The notes beneath the pieces are model-generated. The model was given only the letters and a program-made list of their open reading frames with translations. It searched no databases and was not told the DNA's origin. Below are positions 5,254-47,143 of a stretch of 64,000 nt of DNA, in pieces. This DNA is from Escherichia phage A4. Numbering within the stretch: position 1 is the stretch's first letter; every line of letters begins with the position of its first letter. Where the stretch lies: the sequence record ON286972; one strand, written 5' to 3'. A program made the translations under genes and the position numbers.

Positions 5254-5820
5254 ATGGCTGGATGTGAAAAGATTTGTGAATACAGTGATGAATATGTTGG
5301 ACATGAAATGTATCACCATAAACGCAATCATATTCAAGTACTATCTAAGCACAGAAAACATTTCCGTGGTAAAGAGGCAACTCTTTTTGTTTTTGAAAAT
5401 GGTTTGAAAGAAGTTTGGAAATCAGGTGGTCAATCCGACGCATCATTGGAATGTGTGAATCCCAATCCAACAGAAGAGAATTGGGATAATTATGAATACT
5501 TCCGCATGTTTAAACGTACACCGTGGGGTAAATCCGAATGCTATGCTGTGTTTTTTGAAAACCTCGATGAATACAAAGCTGCACTGAAACAGTTCCAGCA
5601 ACGACTGGTAATGGAATATGCATATTACCTGTACGTACCAGATGTACCAGGTAAAGTCGGTGGTATGTATCTTAACTTCTCAACTGATCTGAGTGCAGTT
5701 AAGCGTCGTTTGCGTCGTCTGGTAGGAACACGCAATCTTAAAATCAAATACATGAAAGGTGATTTCTGCGATTTCTATAATGAACAGAAATTGATTAGAA
5801 TCGGTTCAGAGGACATGTAA
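5254..5820 (+). CDS. hypothetical protein
   Basis: ATG ORF with AAAGG SD. Confidence 0.6.
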   Translation: MAGCEKICEYSDEYVGHEMYHHKRNHIQVLSKHRKHFRGKEATLFVFENGLKEVWKSGGQSDASLECVNPNPTEENWDNYEYFRMFKRTPWGKSECYAVFFENLDEYKAALKQFQQRLVMEYAYYLYVPDVPGKVGGMYLNFSTDLSAVKRRLRRLVGTRNLKIKYMKGDFCDFYNEQKLIRIGSEDM

Positions 5821-7812: not shown

Positions 7813-8022
7813 ATGGCACAAGAAATTAAAGCACAAGTACTAGACGTAACTGATTTTGACCGCACTGTAAACTACATTCAGTTCCAAATTCACCAAGCGG
7901 AAGAAGCACTTGCTCAATTCCACGGTACTGGTGCTAAGCCAATCATGTTCGCTCATCTCATCACTTGGAAGAAAAATCTCCAAGAAGAACTACACGAACT
8001 GCGTAAAGCAAATCGTAAGTAA
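7813..8022 (+). CDS. hypothetical protein
   Basis: ATG ORF, SD-like AAAGGG, extended -10 (TGATATAAT) upstream, terminator downstream. Confidence 0.55.
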   Translation: MAQEIKAQVLDVTDFDRTVNYIQFQIHQAEEALAQFHGTGAKPIMFAHLITWKKNLQEELHELRKANRK

Positions 8023-8028
8023 TTAGGG

Positions 8029-8058
8029 TTTATGCCCTGTCCATATGGATGGGGCTTT
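8029..8058 (+). terminator. rho-independent terminator
   Basis: GC-rich hairpin around CCATATGG followed by CTTTTT. Confidence 0.5.
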
Positions 8059-8087
8059 TTAATCAAAAGTATAGAGGAAAAAAGAAA

Positions 8088-8627
8088 ATGGGTGTAGAAT
8101 ATTATTTTTTATTTGGATGCCTTAGTGTTCTGGTGTTGATAACAGTAGGATTAATTATTAATACATGCATAAGTGGTTCTAAATATTTTCGTTCTTTCCA
8201 GTTTCTTATGTCAGCTATGTCATATAATAAAGAAGCTGATACAGCCATTAATCTATTACTAGATAAGACTGAAGCTGGAATACTTATTGCGAAATTATCA
8301 CCATCTGATGACACGATTATGTTTGTCAATCCAAACGATGAAGAAACAACACTTGTAGCAAATCAATATCGCACTAGTCATGCAGATCCACGTTATGTTA
8401 AAGTTCTTAATTCAGAAGGTGAAATCTGGATTGGTTCTAAATACTATGCTTATGGATACATCCATCGTTACTACGGTCAACGAAAGGAAGAATTTTATAA
8501 GAAACGTCCAAGTTTAAATACATTTAAACGTATTCTAAAACTTGAACACGAGTTAAAGAAACCAAGTTCAGAAAACGCAGCACCAAATCATGTGCATAAG
8601 CGTGATAGTGATATCGTGGAGTTATAA
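8088..8627 (+). CDS. membrane-anchored hypothetical protein
   Basis: track ORF 8049..8627 trimmed to ATG after AGAGGA SD; N-terminal hydrophobic helix. Confidence 0.55.
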   Translation: MGVEYYFLFGCLSVLVLITVGLIINTCISGSKYFRSFQFLMSAMSYNKEADTAINLLLDKTEAGILIAKLSPSDDTIMFVNPNDEETTLVANQYRTSHADPRYVKVLNSEGEIWIGSKYYAYGYIHRYYGQRKEEFYKKRPSLNTFKRILKLEHELKKPSSENAAPNHVHKRDSDIVEL

Positions 8628-36071: not shown

Positions 36072-36109
36072 TAACCAAGTACTCATATAAAATACAGAAT
36101 AGTATTAAA

Positions 36110-36145
36110 TACTTGTGTACTAGTTAAGTACGCAAGTATTTTTTT
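36110..36145 (+). terminator. rho-independent terminator
   Basis: hairpin ACTTGTGTAC...GTACGCAAGT followed by TTTTTTT. Confidence 0.5.
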
Positions 36146-36162
36146 ATTATTTTGAGGTTAAT

Positions 36163-36528
36163 ATGGGAAAGCTTACAATTATAATAGCCATGATAATGGC
36201 ACTTAATGTTATGCCAGTTGAAGCTAACGAGGACGTTGCGTGGTTCGATTGCATAGGAAATGATGGACAGTGGCATACGTTTTCCAGTGATCCATATAAT
36301 GGTACTGATATACTAATAGATGGTGAAAATTATCGTTTTGTTAGTGAAAGTAAAATTGGCAACAAAAAGGTATCGACATTTAGAACTGATTCTGGTATAA
36401 TTGCTAATGTCATAATGATAGTTGATCCTGAAAATAATACAGGGGATATATATGTAGTGGTTTACCGTGATCATTCCAATAAAAGAAGTCTGGATCTTGA
36501 TAAACTTCATTTACATTGTCAAATATAA
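36163..36528 (+). CDS. secreted protein (signal peptide)
   Basis: N-terminal MGKLTIIIAMIMALNVMPVEA; SD GAGG. Confidence 0.55.
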   Translation: MGKLTIIIAMIMALNVMPVEANEDVAWFDCIGNDGQWHTFSSDPYNGTDILIDGENYRFVSESKIGNKKVSTFRTDSGIIANVIMIVDPENNTGDIYVVVYRDHSNKRSLDLDKLHLHCQI

Positions 36529-36542
36529 TTTAAGGTAAATCT

Positions 36543-36917
36543 ATGTTCAATAGTATCATTGGGTTCTCATTAGTACTTCCACAAATCATTTTTGGTATTT
36601 GTTTTGTAACTTTTATGATGGGGTCAATCTATGGTATATGGTATTACATTTTAAAACAATCAGATGGAATCATTTTAAAAATAACAATGCATTTTGATGT
36701 GGATTCACCAGCATGGAATTCATCTATTATTACCAATACATTGTATTTTATGATGATCATTTTGGAACAATTGGGATTTGTATCTAATAGTAATGTTTCT
36801 ATGACCGCAGGTATGGCAAGTATTTGTTGTTTGTGGTATATTGTTTATAAGATTGATGTGTTGTATAATATGTATCGTGAAATGGTATTGAACAGAGATA
36901 TGCAGAGGAAAAAATGA
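36543..36917 (+). CDS. multi-pass membrane protein
   Basis: ATG ORF; hydrophobic helices. Confidence 0.5.
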   Translation: MFNSIIGFSLVLPQIIFGICFVTFMMGSIYGIWYYILKQSDGIILKITMHFDVDSPAWNSSIITNTLYFMMIILEQLGFVSNSNVSMTAGMASICCLWYIVYKIDVLYNMYREMVLNRDMQRKK

Positions 36918-37267
36918 TGAAAGTTATATTATTTTTTATGTGTATTATTATGTGTGGTGTCTCTTATGCTGCACCCTTAGCCGGATTGCTTTGTAAAGAG
37001 AATTCTGAACAACACATATTCCAAGGGGATTCAGATGACCTTGATATCATTTACATCGATGGTACTGAATATACATACGTTAAAGACCATACTGTTGGTG
37101 ATATCAGTTTCACTGAATATGCAAAAACAGGTGACACTGATTATAGAGCCTACCTTCAAGTGAATATGATAGAGGGTGAAGACGGAACACAAGAAGTCAA
37201 ACTCGTACTTAAACGTATTGGAGATAAGGAGGCTGATTTTGGAGGTGAGTGTACATATGATGATTGA
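36914..37267 (+). CDS. secreted protein (signal peptide)
   Basis: ATGA overlap; N-terminal MMKVILFFMCIIMCGVSYA. Confidence 0.55.
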   Translation: MMKVILFFMCIIMCGVSYAAPLAGLLCKENSEQHIFQGDSDDLDIIYIDGTEYTYVKDHTVGDISFTEYAKTGDTDYRAYLQVNMIEGEDGTQEVKLVLKRIGDKEADFGGECTYDD

Positions 37268-37275
37268 TTAAAAAA

Positions 37276-37308
37276 GGTTGACTAACGTCAGCCTTTTTTG
37301 TTATACTG
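37276..37308 (+). terminator. terminator-promoter stem-loop cassette (stem contains TTGACT; T-run; then TATACT)
   Basis: GGTTGAC-TAAC-GTCAGCC TTTTTTG TTATACT; TTGACT to TATACT spacing 18. Confidence 0.6.
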
Positions 37309-37316
37309 ATCCCAAT

Positions 37317-37442
37317 ATGCTTGCATTTCTTCAAGTTGATGTATATGAAGAAAGTAATGGCGAACAGTATGTTAAACTTGTGATGATGCGTAAGGCAGCA
37401 AAACAGGCAACATTCGGTGGCTTGTGTAAATATGAGGACTAA
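37317..37442 (+). pseudogene. 41-codon ORF paralogous to the C-terminus of gene 36914..37267 (partial duplicate)
   Basis: LQVDVYEESNGEQYVKLVMMRKAAKQATFGGLCKYED vs LQVNMIEGEDGTQEVKLVLKRIGDKEADFGGECTYDD; directly after cassette. Confidence 0.45.
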
Positions 37443-37446
37443 ACAT

Positions 37447-37638
37447 ATGTTGATTTATCAATGTGATAACATTCGTGTTATACAGCATCCCTACTTACAA
37501 ATCTTTGATGTGCAGCAGTATATGGAAGGTGATGACCCAAGAACCTATGGTCGTAAGTATGATTACTTCACTGTAAAGCAGTGTCGTAACATCAAAGAAG
37601 TACGACAATTAGTTCAAGAACTTCAAAATAAAGGTTGA
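37447..37638 (+). CDS. hypothetical protein
   Basis: track ORF 37417..37638 (GTG) trimmed to ATG after GAGGA SD. Confidence 0.5.
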   Translation: MLIYQCDNIRVIQHPYLQIFDVQQYMEGDDPRTYGRKYDYFTVKQCRNIKEVRQLVQELQNKG

Positions 37639-37664
37639 CTTCGGTCAGCCTTTTTTGTTATAAT
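37633..37664 (+). terminator. terminator-promoter stem-loop cassette
   Basis: GGTTGAC-TTCG-GTCAGCC TTTTTTG TTATAATCATTTCATC. Confidence 0.65.
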
Positions 37665-37693
37665 CATTTCATCTACTACTGGGGATTTTAATT

Positions 37694-38134
37694 ATGTATG
37701 TATATCGTTTTGAACTTAAATTCAGTTATATTGAACCTAACTTAGATCCTGCAAAAACAGTAGGACCGTTCGCACGGTACTCTTCGCGATACAGTACTAA
37801 AAATGGATTTGAACGTTTGTGTATGACTACACCTTCGCAATTCCAACCTGAGCCAACTGAAGATGGGATATATTCAATCAAACGTGGCTGGGTATTTGGT
37901 TGTCAGAGTTTGAATGATTTGTTTAAGTTCTTTACTATGGACTTGGGTAAATTACATCGTGCAGGGTTCGCTGTATCAGTATATGAAGTTCCTGATAACC
38001 ATGTAGACATTGGACATAACCAAGTGCAGTACTATTGTGGTAGTGCAAAACTACTTCGTATTATGTCAGTAAAGGAAGCTAAAGAAGAATTTCGTGCTAC
38101 AAGATTTAATAAGGAAGAGATGGCATATGAATAA
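37694..38134 (+). CDS. hypothetical protein
   Basis: ATG ORF downstream of cassette. Confidence 0.55.
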   Translation: MYVYRFELKFSYIEPNLDPAKTVGPFARYSSRYSTKNGFERLCMTTPSQFQPEPTEDGIYSIKRGWVFGCQSLNDLFKFFTMDLGKLHRAGFAVSVYEVPDNHVDIGHNQVQYYCGSAKLLRIMSVKEAKEEFRATRFNKEEMAYE

Positions 38135-38483
38135 AACATCAACACGATTTGCAAAGTACTTGAGTTATGAAATACCACAAGATCCGTATTTCGACCAACG
38201 TGACGATGAAGATTACATAAAGTTAACTCGTGAACTACGAAATAAGTTCCAACAGATTTTAAGTTCATACACTAATACACATCCACATTTAAAGTACTTC
38301 ATTAAGGCAGATATAGATTCAGATGATTCTGAACTATCATTCCTTGAATACACAGTTGAGTGTGTTGGGTATGTACCTGATAATAGTGTAATTAATCACA
38401 ACAAAATAAAGTTCGACTTGTACGTTATTTGTGTTATAATGAACTTAATTGCACAAATGAACAACTATTCAATAGGGGATTAA
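38127..38483 (+). CDS. hypothetical protein
   Basis: track ORF 38094..38483 trimmed to ATG after AAGGAAGAG SD. Confidence 0.5.
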   Translation: MNKTSTRFAKYLSYEIPQDPYFDQRDDEDYIKLTRELRNKFQQILSSYTNTHPHLKYFIKADIDSDDSELSFLEYTVECVGYVPDNSVINHNKIKFDLYVICVIMNLIAQMNNYSIGD

Positions 38484-40060: not shown

Positions 40061-40284
40061 TGAAAAGGTATAAAATTGAATACCTACTTAAAGTAAGAGA
40101 GAAAAGTATTAGTAGTGAGAAATACACCAGTGAGATATTCGTCAGAGATGAGTATTACATTGGTGAAAATGAAGTTGAAGTACTGTTACAATGCATAGAA
40201 AATGAATTTCAAGATATGACACGTTATATGTCATTTGAGATATCGTGTGCAAAAGTTACATTCTTGAACAATACTTCATATTAA
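40057..40284 (+). CDS. hypothetical protein
   Basis: ATGA overlap. Confidence 0.5.
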   Translation: MMKRYKIEYLLKVREKSISSEKYTSEIFVRDEYYIGENEVEVLLQCIENEFQDMTRYMSFEISCAKVTFLNNTSY

Positions 40285-40288
40285 AAAA

Positions 40289-40313
40289 GGGTTGACTTTT
40301 GTTGACCCTTTTT
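40289..40313 (+). terminator. terminator stem-loop of the cassette family (GGGTTGAC-TTTT-GTTGACCC + T-run)
   Basis: hairpin with wobble pairs followed by TTTTT. Confidence 0.55.
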
Positions 40314-40320
40314 GCTATTC

Positions 40321-40328: not shown

Positions 40329-40374
40329 TAGACATAGAGAATATATAACATGAAATCTATGGAGAGAAATCAAA

Positions 40375-41913
40375 ATGCCAGGTAAATTCACTGACAAAAA
40401 CGGCGGCAATATGGCTGGACACTCTGATAAATGGAGTGATGAGAATCGTCGCAAAAATAGTTTCCAAGCGGGGCAAGGTTCCCGTGGCTCTCGCAACCAA
40501 GGAACGGGAGAAGCTGGGAAAGCAAACACAGTTGCATCACAGGGTCTTGATACTTCAAACATGTCCCAGCATGAAAAATTGAAGTACTTCAATAGTCTTG
40601 GTCTTTTAAATCCGCAGCAGAAGCAACAACTTGCTGCACTGGATAAAGCACAAGAACAACCTAAAGCAGCACCAGAAGCACCTGCACAGCCTAAAGCGGC
40701 TAATCCGGTAAAAGAACTAAGTGATAAACTTGGGAAGATCTTTGCTAACAAACCACAACTAATTCAAGGTATCGTAAAAGCACTTCAAGCGGTTCCTAAA
40801 GAACAACTCAAGGATAAAGCACAAGCTGTTCTTGATAGTATGAAAGGGAATACCAGTACTGAACCAACTGAAGTATTCAGTACTATCATGCGTGCACTTG
40901 AAGGTAAGCCACAGGCTGATGATGATATTGAGTTTGATGAACCTGCACAAGAAGTAGCAAATCTTGACTCAATCGTTTCTACATTTGGAAAAATTGGTGC
41001 AGAAGATAAGACTAATGCACAACAAGTTAAGAATGTACAAGCTAAGTTACAAAATCGTCTTGAAGGTAAAGATGAAAAGATTAAACTTGCAGCAGATGCG
41101 TTGAAGAAAGCATTAGAATCATATAAACCTGGTGAGAAATCTCGCTTCATTACTGCAATGAATGCAGTATTCGGTGCAATGAAGAAGTATGAAGCTGAAC
41201 ACGGTGAGAAAGTAACTCCTGATGGATATCTCCTTCGCAAAGATGAAGAAGGTGCTGTTGACCAGAAGGACGCTGAACCAGACTATGGTAATTTACCAGA
41301 TACAGTTGATATGGATGGTTACATTCATCGTCCTGATATGCAAGAATTTGGTTCAGACAAAGAAGGTTTTGAACATGCTATGGCTGTGTACAAAGCATTA
41401 GTCGATAATCCACAATATGCAAATAGTTTTGTAGATGAGTTTGATAGTGCATGGAACAACTACCAAGACAAAGGATATGATTTCCCAGCAGAAGCAGCAT
41501 TCTTTGAACTAGGTAAACTTCTTGCTAAAAATGGTATTAATGTTGGTTCTAATGGTGAAGCAAACACTTCAGAAATGGACGCTGAATTGGCTAAAGATCG
41601 TGAAATGACTGATAAGTCAATTCATGAACTACAAAAGCTAATGATGTGGATTGCTGAAATTGGCAAGAAAGCTGGTGCAGATCCTAAGAGCATTAACAGC
41701 AATATTAGTTGGATTAAACATAAGGTTGATAACAATGCCCGTAAATTACAAAAGGCATGGACCGACCTAGTGAATGGTGCAGACGATGTTGATATCGATT
41801 CACCAGAAGCATACGAGTACGCATTGAACACACTTGATAACTCTTTCAAGGATTACGAAAATGGTAACGTAACTGATTGGGAAAAGGATATCATGCATAA
41901 GTACGGTAAATGA
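40375..41913 (+). CDS. large low-complexity Lys/Glu/Ala-rich protein (candidate late/internal virion protein)
   Basis: 512-aa ORF with GGAGA SD; Gly/Gln-rich N-terminus, PKAAPEAPAQPKAA linker; function inferred only. Confidence 0.6.
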   Translation: MPGKFTDKNGGNMAGHSDKWSDENRRKNSFQAGQGSRGSRNQGTGEAGKANTVASQGLDTSNMSQHEKLKYFNSLGLLNPQQKQQLAALDKAQEQPKAAPEAPAQPKAANPVKELSDKLGKIFANKPQLIQGIVKALQAVPKEQLKDKAQAVLDSMKGNTSTEPTEVFSTIMRALEGKPQADDDIEFDEPAQEVANLDSIVSTFGKIGAEDKTNAQQVKNVQAKLQNRLEGKDEKIKLAADALKKALESYKPGEKSRFITAMNAVFGAMKKYEAEHGEKVTPDGYLLRKDEEGAVDQKDAEPDYGNLPDTVDMDGYIHRPDMQEFGSDKEGFEHAMAVYKALVDNPQYANSFVDEFDSAWNNYQDKGYDFPAEAAFFELGKLLAKNGINVGSNGEANTSEMDAELAKDREMTDKSIHELQKLMMWIAEIGKKAGADPKSINSNISWIKHKVDNNARKLQKAWTDLVNGADDVDIDSPEAYEYALNTLDNSFKDYENGNVTDWEKDIMHKYGK

Positions 41914-41923
41914 TAAAAAAAGA

Positions 41924-41955
41924 GGTTGACTTCGGTCAGCCTTTTTTGCTATAAT
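41924..41955 (+). terminator. terminator-promoter stem-loop cassette
   Basis: GGTTGAC-TTCG-GTCAGCC TTTTTTG CTATAAT. Confidence 0.65.
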
Positions 41956-41983
41956 ACTCTCATAACCTAAAAGGAGAAACTCT

Positions 41984-44361: not shown

Positions 44362-44388
44362 TATGTACGCATTGTATAATAAAGAAAA

Positions 44389-44422
44389 GGATTGACTTCA
44401 GTCAGCCCTTTTTTCTATAATC
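44389..44422 (+). terminator. terminator-promoter stem-loop cassette
   Basis: GGATTGAC-TTCA-GTCAGCCC TTTTTT CTATAATCATTTCATC. Confidence 0.6.
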
Positions 44423-44449: not shown

Positions 44450-44887
44450 ATGACACGCATTAACTTAGTACATGTTAAAGAACTTGCTGACCAACATCTG
44501 ATGGCTGAATATCGTGAACTTCCACGTGTGTTTGGTGCTGTACAAAAACATGTTCAAGCACGTAAGCGTGTACGTGATTTCAAAATTAACAGTACTTATC
44601 TGTTAGGTTCAGGTCATGTAACATTCTTCTACGACAAGTTACTATACTTACAGAAGCGTCATATTGATATTGTTAACGAATGTTTGCGTCGTGGTATGAA
44701 GATTCAAAACACTGAAGTAAACGACATTAGCGGCTTCCCTGCTGAGTTTTGTAATGACTACGTACCATCGGAGTCCGAGATTAAAACATCACGCGAGCGT
44801 TTGATTGAGAAGCTTCAGATGAAGCCTAAGTGGTATAAGTTTACTGATGTTGAGCTACCTATATATTATGTTGATATGATACAATGA
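44450..44887 (+). CDS. denV: pyrimidine-dimer DNA glycosylase (T4 endonuclease V homologue)
   Basis: N-terminus [31 protein letters not shown] closely matches T4 endonuclease V as I recall it; SD GAGAGG. Confidence 0.9.
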
Positions 44888-45176: not shown

Positions 45177-45416
45177 ATGAAACTATCTTTTATACGTTTA
45201 GCAGAATTCTTCGGTACTGATATAATTACTTTACAACAAATTGCAGACAATACTTCATTAAGTACACAAGAAGTACTTGACTTAGATGTGATAGAGTGTG
45301 ATAATACTTCTATCGATTATAAAGAAGGTCTTGTCGAAAAAGATAAGATTCAGGCTAAGATTAATGGTGCTGGACGGGTTCAGTACTGGAAAGGAGTTTT
45401 AAGTCATGCCAGCTAA
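45177..45416 (+). CDS. hypothetical protein
   Basis: ATG ORF with AGAGG SD. Confidence 0.55.
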   Translation: MKLSFIRLAEFFGTDIITLQQIADNTSLSTQEVLDLDVIECDNTSIDYKEGLVEKDKIQAKINGAGRVQYWKGVLSHAS

Positions 45417-47103
45417 ATTAACCCCTAAACAAGCAAAAGAAAAATTCAACAAAAAAGTATTAGAACATAACGTTCCAATTGAAGCTGATTATAGTAAGTA
45501 TGAAAATGCCAAATTAAAAAACATCCAAGTAGTTTGCAATGATGTATTAAAACACAAATCAGGCATATCACAAATATATCTTATGGATCACGCAAACCTC
45601 ACACACCCATCCAAAAAATTTGGTTGTCCTGAATGTGAAGACTGGTATAATGGTCATGCTAAAAGTTTAGATATTTTAATTGTTAGGGAAAGAATTAATT
45701 CTTGGATTAGTACTTATGGCGGGATTATTGATACGGTTAGTGGTGAAGTTGAAGTTTATAAAAATAATTCATCCAAAATACCATATATTTGTAAAAATGG
45801 AACTAAAAAAACGCTTACTATTTCTTCACTTGGCGATGAAATCGGTTGTAATTGTTCTAAATGTAAAGCTGAATTAATATCAGAAATCGAAGATAACAAT
45901 GAATATACATCCATGACTACTGTTGATGATTGTGTTACAATTTCCCATTTTAAATTTGGGGATGATGTTGCATTCTCGTGGATTTCACCATTGGAAATGA
46001 AAAAACATGGTTACTGTCTTGCCGAAAAAATGAAAGAAAAAGCATTGTCGGTTGGTAAAAATATTATTGGATATGCAATATCATCTCTTAGTGAATGGAA
46101 AAATGAAAAAACTCCTGTAATAACCGAACACGAAGGAGTATTATATCGTATTTCCAAAGCATCATATTTGATCAATAATAATATAGTACATAGACCACAT
46201 TATACAAAAAATAATTTTTTATATTATTTTTACAAATGTTCACCTAACAATCAACTTATTACACCAATCCTAATACCTGATGATATTGGTACAAAAAAGA
46301 AAATTAAAGTATGTTATAAATCATGTGGGTGTGAATATGATATATCTGTGGACGTTATAATGAACAGAAATTTAAAAACTTGTGGAAACTGTAAAAATAT
46401 AGATACTAATAAATTTATAGAACAGTGCTTGGAGTTCACTTCAAGTGGAGATTATATCTATGATAGAGTAAACTATATAAATCAAAGTACACCTGTAACT
46501 ATAGTTCATAAAATTTACGGCGAATTCAAAAGTACACCACAAAATCACTTAATACATTTAAAAAACGGTTTGAAATATGATACAGCTAACTTTAAAATAA
46601 AAAATTTAACTCAATTTAAAATTAAAGCAAATGAAGTTCATAATAACTTATATAATTATGATAAAGTTGATTATGTAAATTCTTCAACGAAAGTATTAAT
46701 AACTCATCCAGTATATGGAGACTTTTGGCAAACTCCAGCAAGTCACCTTGGTGGGTGTGGTCATCCACTTGCGGCTGGTCATTCTCAGCAATATGCATAT
46801 ATTCATAATATTTTGGATGGTGTTTTATCTGTAGCATTGAAATATGGGATTGAAAAGCAGAAAGGTAAGAGGGTGATGCAGCAAAATAAAAAATCCATGT
46901 TTCAAGTTCAATCTCTGTATACTTATTTTTTTCCATCTGTATACGAATGTAAGCAAGCTGAAAAAGAATGTAAGAAACTATTTGGTAAAGGTGTTTTAAC
47001 TAAACAAGAAATGCCAGACGGGTATACTGAAACAACTACACCAAACAACATAGATAAAATTATTGCCATCTATGAAAAATGGGGTGGGGTGAAACAAAAC
47101 TAA
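45406..47103 (+). CDS. Cys-rich protein with tandem internal repeats (candidate zinc-binding/DNA-binding protein)
   Basis: 565-aa ORF; multiple C-x2-C pairs (CPECEDW, CNCSKCKAE, CGCEYD, CGNCKN); repeated Y-D-x-V-x-Y-x-N-x-S-T-x-V-x-I-x-H-x-x-Y-G-x-F module. Confidence 0.6.
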   Translation: MPAKLTPKQAKEKFNKKVLEHNVPIEADYSKYENAKLKNIQVVCNDVLKHKSGISQIYLMDHANLTHPSKKFGCPECEDWYNGHAKSLDILIVRERINSWISTYGGIIDTVSGEVEVYKNNSSKIPYICKNGTKKTLTISSLGDEIGCNCSKCKAELISEIEDNNEYTSMTTVDDCVTISHFKFGDDVAFSWISPLEMKKHGYCLAEKMKEKALSVGKNIIGYAISSLSEWKNEKTPVITEHEGVLYRISKASYLINNNIVHRPHYTKNNFLYYFYKCSPNNQLITPILIPDDIGTKKKIKVCYKSCGCEYDISVDVIMNRNLKTCGNCKNIDTNKFIEQCLEFTSSGDYIYDRVNYINQSTPVTIVHKIYGEFKSTPQNHLIHLKNGLKYDTANFKIKNLTQFKIKANEVHNNLYNYDKVDYVNSSTKVLITHPVYGDFWQTPASHLGGCGHPLAAGHSQQYAYIHNILDGVLSVALKYGIEKQKGKRVMQQNKKSMFQVQSLYTYFFPSVYECKQAEKECKKLFGKGVLTKQEMPDGYTETTTPNNIDKIIAIYEKWGGVKQN

Positions 47104-47109
47104 ACAAAA

Positions 47110-47143
47110 GGGTTGACTTCGGTCAGCCCTTTTTGCTATAATT
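47110..47143 (+). terminator. terminator-promoter stem-loop cassette
   Basis: GGGTTGAC-TTCG-GTCAGCCC TTTTTG CTATAATTATTTCATC. Confidence 0.65.

Follow-up and report, generated by a model that had tools for sequence, protein, structure and literature searches.

The 64,000-nucleotide stretch of Escherichia phage A4 analyzed here (record ON286972; hereafter, the window) contains a 41-codon open reading frame directly downstream of a cassette in which a hairpin overlaps a predicted promoter. Both the frame, with its translation, and the cassette had been recorded in an initial annotation and are confirmed here. The preceding gene, X', and the genes that follow, Y and Z, are all small (Table 1). 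X' matches positions 2–107 of the 107 in phrog_27330 in a PHROG profile search (E 1.7e-38), a family of small secreted proteins from Asteriusvirus and Alcyoneusvirus phages, and its N-terminus carries a signal-peptide-like segment (MMKVILFFMCIIMCGVSYA|A), predicted by inspection of the sequence. The closest homologue of X' among catalogued phages shares 57% amino acid identity. A 121-aa gene located two genes upstream of X' (36163..36528, + strand) is a distant paralogue of it (phrog_27330, E 1.4e-5; 27% identity to X' by tblastn, E 0.005), and a small membrane protein is therefore flanked by two related secreted proteins. A Pfam scan of X', the two genes upstream, Y, Z and the corresponding X allele of phage BF17 (see below) identified no family at E ≤ 0.01, and the PHROG search returned only families of unknown function.

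Table 1. Positions of genes, cassettes and junctions at the locus, numbered as in the window.
Feature	Position	Strand	Description
Membrane-like gene	36543..36917	+	124 aa; between the 121-aa gene and X'
Gene X'	36914..37267	+	117 aa; intact resident allele; small secreted protein, phrog_27330
Cassette 1	37270..37307	+	Hairpin (37270–37299) overlapping a predicted sigma70-type promoter; initially annotated as 37276..37308
Left junction	37303..37307	+	5-nt microhomology ATACT; three-way comparison of the window, the empty site (L011, L012, L014) and BF17
X stub	37308..37442	+	Donor codons 73–116 and stop; BF17/TH47-type X allele
Stub ORF	37317..37442	+	41 codons and TAA; from the ORF list
Gene Y	37447..37638	+	63 aa; phrog_6957 (E 4e-34), function unknown
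Cassette 2	37627..37664	+	Donor-type copy; loop TTCG, -10 TATAAT, -13.3 kcal/mol
Gene Z	37694..38134	+	146 aa; phrog_1106; PF26820 (Phage_T4_Y00F) in precomputed annotation
Right crossover interval	37982..37998	+	Homologous, inside Z; stretch conserved in both lineages

The hairpin of cassette 1 (GGTTGAC-TAAC-GTCAGCC) is followed by six T residues and GTTATACT. It is intrinsic-terminator-like, with an RNA folding energy of -16.2 kcal/mol (z -6.6). The predicted promoter consists of a -35 box TTGACT (37278–37283), an 18-nt spacer and an extended -10 element TGT-TATACT, the hexamer of which occupies 37302–37307. Transcription is predicted to start at ~37314, approximately 2–3 nt from the ATG of the 41-codon ORF.

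The product of the ORF (MLAFLQVDVYEESNGEQYVK...) is homologous to the C-terminus of X', as had been proposed initially, with 21 of 44 residues identical (48%, E 7e-13 by BLASTP; E 1e-8 to 1e-9 by tblastn inside the window). It covers only positions 68–107 of the 107 in phrog_27330 (E 4.9e-17) and is thus not a full-length member. The homology begins 5' of the ATG, at 37308 (D-P-N). The homologous segment, here called the X stub, has neither a start codon nor a signal peptide and is missing the 5' 62% of the gene, such that 38% of the protein is left.

We searched positions 36100–38200 against 50,697 phage records with megablast. The matches were confined to Asteriusvirus and Alcyoneusvirus jumbo phages, and every match began at 37303 or 37320; the flank at 36100–37302 has only 68–70% matches in the phage collection. 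The nearest catalogued relatives are the Asteriusvirus jumbo phages BF17, TH47, 121Q and PBECO4. Positions 37308..37446 are identical at 139 of 139 sites to BF17 and TH47, where they form the 3' end of X, a full-length 116-aa orthologue. The BF17 protein (QXN76516, 116 aa) has the same last 44 residues as the stub. Thus, the intact arrangement that the initial annotation had suggested seeking in related phages does exist. The order X, Y (after 4–14 nt), cassette and Z is found in BF17, 121Q, JNE01, ph0011, UE-S1 and CMSTMSU, none of which has a cassette between X and Y, and Y directly follows X in all catalogued Asteriusviruses examined. When the whole window was compared with 40 kb of BF17 and TH47 by blastn, the background identity was ~68–79% (overall about 70–75%) with a few islands of 86–96%, and 37303–38088 formed one high-identity island of 95%. 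Such an island within a ~70–75% background indicates that the stub is part of a short tract imported into a divergent genome. As the stub is identical to the allele of a different lineage at all 139 positions, we consider it a xenologous remnant.

For the resident flank, the phage collection contains no record at >70% identity, and the best background identity to catalogued Asteriusviruses is ~70–79%. Near-identical DNA was found only in assemblies GCA_036253495.1, GCA_011911785.2 and GCA_025677605.1 and in metagenome/SRA assemblies. The window appears to belong to an uncatalogued lineage of Asteriusvirus-like jumbo coliphages, which we refer to as clade W. The informative clade W contigs were found solely by exact-protein look-up, which identified an identical X' in 11 public contigs; an exact search of the IMG/VR viral contigs with the junction sequence returned 0 matches, and a protein-based search of viral contigs confirmed no X' relatives.

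Comparison of these contigs revealed a filled and an empty state of the site. Among the ~350-kb clade W contigs, JAYLON010000004.1 is filled, and AAREHQ020000002.1 and DAJODB010000002.1 are empty. The filled state is represented by L013 (100% identical to the window across 10.4 kb), L010 (a 352-kb contig with the window's arrangement, 99.3% identical) and L021 (same gene order, 100% identical), and at least five separate contigs of differing origin (L010/L019, L013/L015, L016, L017 and L018) share the identical junction. L011 (a 359-kb contig), L012 and L014 match the window at 95–99.6% on both sides and are without 356–357 bp. In these three and in L020 and L022 (95–99.8% identical to the window on both sides), the order is X'-cassette-Z', with neither the stub nor Y at the locus. 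Cassette 1 belongs to the resident lineage, since it is the same in L011 and L012 and differs in L014 by only one loop base and two extra A residues. Positions 5357–5401 of L011 align with both 37270–37314 and 37627–37671; the inserted 357 bp are therefore flanked by ~45-nt direct cassette repeats. The stub thus has the attributes of a gene remnant: the gene is full-length elsewhere, the start and the N-terminal targeting signal are missing, and an empty-site allele exists.

The availability of the donor, empty and filled sites allowed the junctions to be placed to within 5 nt and 17 nt. At the left junction, the empty site reads ...GCCTTTTTTGTTATACT|TATTCCATATTAATTGAATAGGTGCACATCATG (the start of Z'), BF17 reads ...CTCGAATGATACT|GATCCCAATATGC, and the window combines the two as ...GCCTTTTTTGTTATACT|GATCCCAATATGC (in short form, GTTATACT|TATTCC, AATGATACT|GATCCC and GTTATACT|GATCCC, respectively). 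The common pentamer ATACT makes up bases 2–6 of the resident -10 hexamer and at the same time belongs to codons 71–72 of donor X (GATACT|GATCCC in the BF17 gene), with codon 72 (ACT) falling within it; in the surroundings, 11 of 14 positions match (T.ATACT.AT.CC). Since the donor partner is codon 72 of X and not a cassette, the left join is illegitimate rather than cassette-to-cassette. The chimeric hexamer is still TATACT, which preserves the predicted promoter of cassette 1. The initial suggestion that the fragment was left behind by recombination at the cassette is borne out, as the stub begins at the 3' edge of the -10 box and relatives with an empty site exist. The further suggestion that the event was cassette-mediated holds in part: cassettes do mark mosaic boundaries (see below), but at this junction a 5-nt microhomology links a cassette with gene-internal sequence.

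The imported patch extends from 37308 to ~37990 (~680 bp) and consists of the X stub, Y, cassette 2 and the 5' two-thirds of Z. Y is identical to BF17/TH47 at 188–190 of 192 nt and is absent in L011, and cassette 2 with its leader (37639–37693) matches BF17/TH47 at 52 of 55 positions, compared to 20 of 37 for L011. Z is chimeric. Its 5' part (37694–37981) is donor-type (273/288, 94.8%, to BF17/TH47 versus 225/288 to L011), and its 3' third is resident-type (38016–38134: 79/119 to BF17 versus 116/119 to L011, and 116–118/119 across L010–L012). Informative positions are donor-type up to 37981 and resident-type from 37999 onwards. In L010, the left junction is shared, but the donor-type tract stops sooner, at ~37883–37902. 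Thus, the illegitimate junction arose once, and the allele later recombined homologously.

We conclude that the 41-codon ORF is very probably a recombination scar, namely the remnant of a BF17/TH47-type X within the imported ~680-bp tract. According to this explanation, the tract would have been copied from a BF17/TH47-type Asteriusvirus with the arrangement X-Y-cassette-Z into a clade W phage with the arrangement X'-cassette-Z'. The right end would be the product of ordinary homologous recombination inside Z (within 37982..37998). The left end, having no homologous partner, would have been formed by the ATACT microhomology that joins the resident -10 hexamer to codon 72 of donor X. The net gain would be 356–357 bp, made up of the 44 3'-terminal codons of donor X, gene Y in its entirety and another cassette. 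Two routes can be envisaged. Break repair starting from the Z side could have copied the donor leftwards past the cassette and Y into X, with the new end then captured at the resident cassette through ATACT. Alternatively, a nascent 3' end near the hairpin may have switched template.

The direction of transfer, from a BF17/TH47-type phage into clade W, is indicated by the empty state of L014, by the different leader and Z' 5' part of the empty-site genomes, by the divergent background, and by the necessary origin of a fragment from a full-length gene. L014 is the outgroup in both flanks, with 72–81 differences compared to 0–23 among the others. The stub and Y differ from BF17/TH47 by 0.6–1.2%, which is below the ~3% that separates L014 from the window. 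This polarity is, however, read from few genomes of a recombining population, in which filled and empty alleles occur on identical left flanks: the filled L010 is identical to the empty L011 and L012 over 2.4 kb. In addition, the databases lack the exact donor, and the 5' part of Z matches BF17/TH47 at just 94.8%, which means that the junction may have arisen in an intermediate lineage not yet sampled. Taken together, the sequence comparisons resolve the donor, empty and filled states and both junctions, and show this direction of transfer and that the allele persists in several samples.

A history in which the filled state is ancestral, and the empty state arose by deletion between the cassette repeats or by replacement of the cassette and Z from a third phage (in the manner of the PeSL elements discussed below), appears very unlikely. 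The ~45-nt direct repeats around the 357 bp could support such a deletion, both alleles are found on identical flanks, and a cassette-to-cassette crossover would be fully homologous and hence mechanistically easier. Deletion would, however, leave the donor-type leader and the donor-type 5' part of Z in place. All five empty-site contigs instead have a different leader and a Z' whose 5' part is 78% identical to BF17, equivalent to the background divergence, and the empty state is therefore not the product of a cassette-to-cassette deletion. The empty outgroup L014 and the outlier status of the patch against the ~70–75% genomic background also speak against this history, which would still require an earlier illegitimate join to create the stub.

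The recombination-scar explanation leaves the question of whether the 41-codon ORF is used. The stub is most likely untranslated or without function. It most likely acts as the 5' leader of a Y transcript that would originate at the cassette 1 promoter, with the putative ribosome-binding site of Y (GAGGA, 37434–37438) located in the last codons of the stub. The leader matches no Rfam family beyond weak chance hits and its folding is not unusual (z -0.16); a structured-RNA interpretation was dropped on these grounds. We find it very unlikely that the ORF is functional, encoding a signal-less C-terminal module of X from a leaderless or near-leaderless mRNA of cassette 1, possibly coupled to the translation of Y. 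The frame is intact, its ATG lies 9 nt past the -10 hexamer, its stop codon precedes the Y ATG by 4 nt as in the donor context, and the allele persists in several samples; the proximity of the ATG to the predicted transcription start would make leaderless translation possible. On the other hand, the ORF has no Shine-Dalgarno sequence and no signal peptide, corresponds to 38% of the family profile, and was skipped by the gene callers in L010 and L019. As the stub has accumulated no substitutions relative to the donor allele since the transfer, its intact frame is uninformative with respect to function and indicates neither decay nor constraint.

The initial annotation also raised the reading that the fragment is a partial duplicate. 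In such a scenario, a copy of the 3' end of X' would have been placed across the cassette and would then have diverged within the genome. Adjacency, common orientation and homology at the protein level agree with such an origin. In the nucleotide comparison that had been proposed as a check, a frame-anchored alignment detected weak similarity (72 of 132 positions identical, 54.5%) that scored higher than all 20,000 shuffles, but no blastn alignment reached significance (best E 0.31). Identity is 66–68% at the first and second positions of codons, whereas third positions match at 13 of 44 sites, which is the random level and implies saturation of synonymous sites. Since the stub is identical to another lineage's allele at 139 of 139 positions, is absent from sister genomes with flanks 99–100% identical, and could not have given rise, as a fragment, to full-length BF17-type X alleles, we attach virtually no probability to a duplication. 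A chimeric assembly of two co-occurring phages, conceivable because related jumbo phages share sewage and gut samples, is equally negligible, as the junction recurs base for base in independent NCBI, ENA and Logan assemblies, including contigs of 352 kb and 154 kb.

Two other mechanisms were considered and rejected. Integration of a mini-circle carrying the stub, Y and a cassette would leave the resident leader and the resident 5' part of Z' downstream of cassette 2, both of which are donor-type in the window. Co-conversion by a homing endonuclease is not supported, since the patch contains no endonuclease gene, and the only endonuclease nearby, 7 kb away, is a T4 endonuclease V-like repair enzyme.

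Cassettes 1 and 2 are members of a family of repeats. The common pattern is GGTTGAC-N4-GTCAGCC followed by a T run and (T/C)TATA(A/C)T, with the -35 box contained in the 5' arm of the stem. The predicted promoter of cassette 2 is TTGACT-18-TATAAT, and both cassettes have a TGn-extended -10. A 28-nt form of the pattern occurs in 6 copies in the window, compared to 0 expected. A structural search identified seven strict cassettes, all on the + strand between 37.2 and 47.2 kb, and a looser eighth at 40282–40318. Each of the eight is located between ORFs of mostly 40–190 aa without a Pfam family. Their hairpins have folding energies of -11.7 to -17.6 kcal/mol (z -2.7 to -6.6 relative to shuffles), and each is followed by a U tract. 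The loop is TTCG in four of the eight cassettes (between 37627 and 47142), corresponding to a UUCG tetraloop in the RNA; it is TAAC in cassette 1 and TAAT in its L014 counterpart. The UUCG tetraloop is very stable in RNA. One cassette (44384–44421) precedes, and may drive, a 145-aa ORF (44450–44887) with precomputed annotation as a T4 endonuclease V-like pyrimidine-dimer glycosylase (PF03013).

The cassettes coincide with boundaries of mosaicism. In the comparison with BF17, in which cassettes and their margins cover 1.4% of the region, 4 of the 13 high-identity block ends fall no further than 10 nt from a cassette (binomial P 2e-5; P 3e-4 when restricted to 37–48 kb). Surviving joints would, however, also be expected between genes and at cassette edges if selection acted to keep genes intact and a promoter in place. 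Breakpoints among close relatives are found at the cassettes at 37270–37307, 40282–40318, 41918–41955, 44384–44421 and 47105–47142.

Several of these sites show individual rearrangements. In L014, similarity falls to 54–59% directly after the -10 box of the cassette at 41926–41955 (41926–41957 in the window), as would be expected if a module bounded by cassettes had been swapped. At 8011–8512 of the same contig, a different hairpin and a 137-aa lipoprotein-like gene replace the cassette at 40282–40318 (40278–40320 in the window); downstream of that cassette, identity in L011 and L012 drops to 72% at 40345–40480. Just upstream of the cassette at 44384–44421, L019 carries a YecR-like lipoprotein gene, BF17 a pair of genes (510 bp) and TH47 ~2.2 kb; L020 is as the window. 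A second gene stub is present at the edge of this cassette (44364–44396). Its sequence, ATGTACGCATTGTATAATAAAGAAAAGGATTGA, corresponds to the first 9 codons (MYALYNKEK) of BF17 QXN76545 (90 aa) and is fused to the A-rich 5' flank of the cassette via a GAAAAG microhomology. A variable region at 45409–47100, the right edge of which is the cassette at 47105–47142, is replaced in L019 (444 aa) and L020 (375 aa), and a 483-aa protein is called there in L021.

These elements resemble the promoter-early stem-loop (PeSL) cassettes of T4-like phages (Arbiol, Comeau and Krisch 2010, PMC2839356; Comeau, Arbiol and Krisch 2014, PMC4122927). The PeSL study (PMC2839356) employed reporter assays, 5' end mapping and inverse PCR and reported cassette-bounded mini-circles; in the PeSL model, cassettes recombine with one another by homology, a process that the authors set against illegitimate recombination. 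The two kinds of cassette share a compact, repeated, intergenic design in which a sigma70-type early promoter, with sigma70-like hexamers and spacing, is combined with a stable stem-loop terminator, and the layouts described for PeSLs include one in which the stem overlaps the -35 box. Both also cluster among small genes of unknown function, and both are located at the edges of insertions, deletions and replacements between related phages. They differ in their carrier, an Asteriusvirus-like jumbo phage here as opposed to the T4-like phages of the described PeSLs, and in that promoter and terminator are predicted here from sequence alone. A further difference concerns the join itself: a homologous cassette-to-cassette origin, as in the PeSL model, does not apply to the left junction, where a -10 hexamer is illegitimately joined through 5 nt to the interior of a gene, and it is for this reason that a gene stub was left here. 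In the part of the literature that was covered, PeSL-type cassettes are not described for Asteriusvirus or RaK2-like phages, and the only related report is of RpoD-like early promoters in phage CBB.

The acquisition of Y is also reminiscent of a moron, in that a single small gene was gained between resident genes with a promoter upstream and a terminator downstream, and in that the novel joint arose through recombination at microhomology or without homology, viable products being retained by selection. Morons and the mosaic joints of tailed phages have reportedly been described by Hendrix and colleagues. 'Moron accretion' is summarized in PMC2839356. In contrast to a free-standing moron, Y arrived within a replacement tract whose other end is homologous, and its promoter is that of the recipient while its terminator is that of the donor. 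As a pseudogene stub at a transfer boundary, the feature is typical in being a 3' fragment without a start or signal peptide, identical to the donor allele and adjoining an intact divergent homologue (X'). It differs in that donor, empty site and filled site are all available.

We consider it unlikely that cassette edges are true mechanistic hot spots, rather than merely sites at which joints are tolerated by selection. The window does contain two gene stubs at cassette edges (37308 and 44364). In a hot-spot mechanism, replication or repair synthesis stalled by a hairpin would end there, and the end would be captured by microhomology; expression of the 41-aa stub from a near-leaderless transcript would likewise be conceivable under this view. 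If correct, Asteriusvirus-like jumbo phages would have a PeSL-like form of gene shuffling that also yields illegitimate joins and stubs.

The recombination scar is itself an ordinary by-product of phage mosaicism, although unusually well resolved. The remnant is xenologous and recent and lies in a PeSL-like setting; features of this kind are known, but we found no published description of one in this phage group. For annotation, the 41-aa ORF should be labeled a remnant, not a gene. With all three states in public data, the natural gain of a gene (Y) by a 350-kb jumbo phage can be traced here at single-base resolution, and the locus provides a worked example of a transfer with one homologous end and one 5-nt microhomology end in the -10 box of a promoter. 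Thus, PeSL-like cassettes, known from T4-like phages, mark module boundaries in Asteriusvirus-like jumbo phages as well, and cassette-associated events are not always cassette-to-cassette exchanges.
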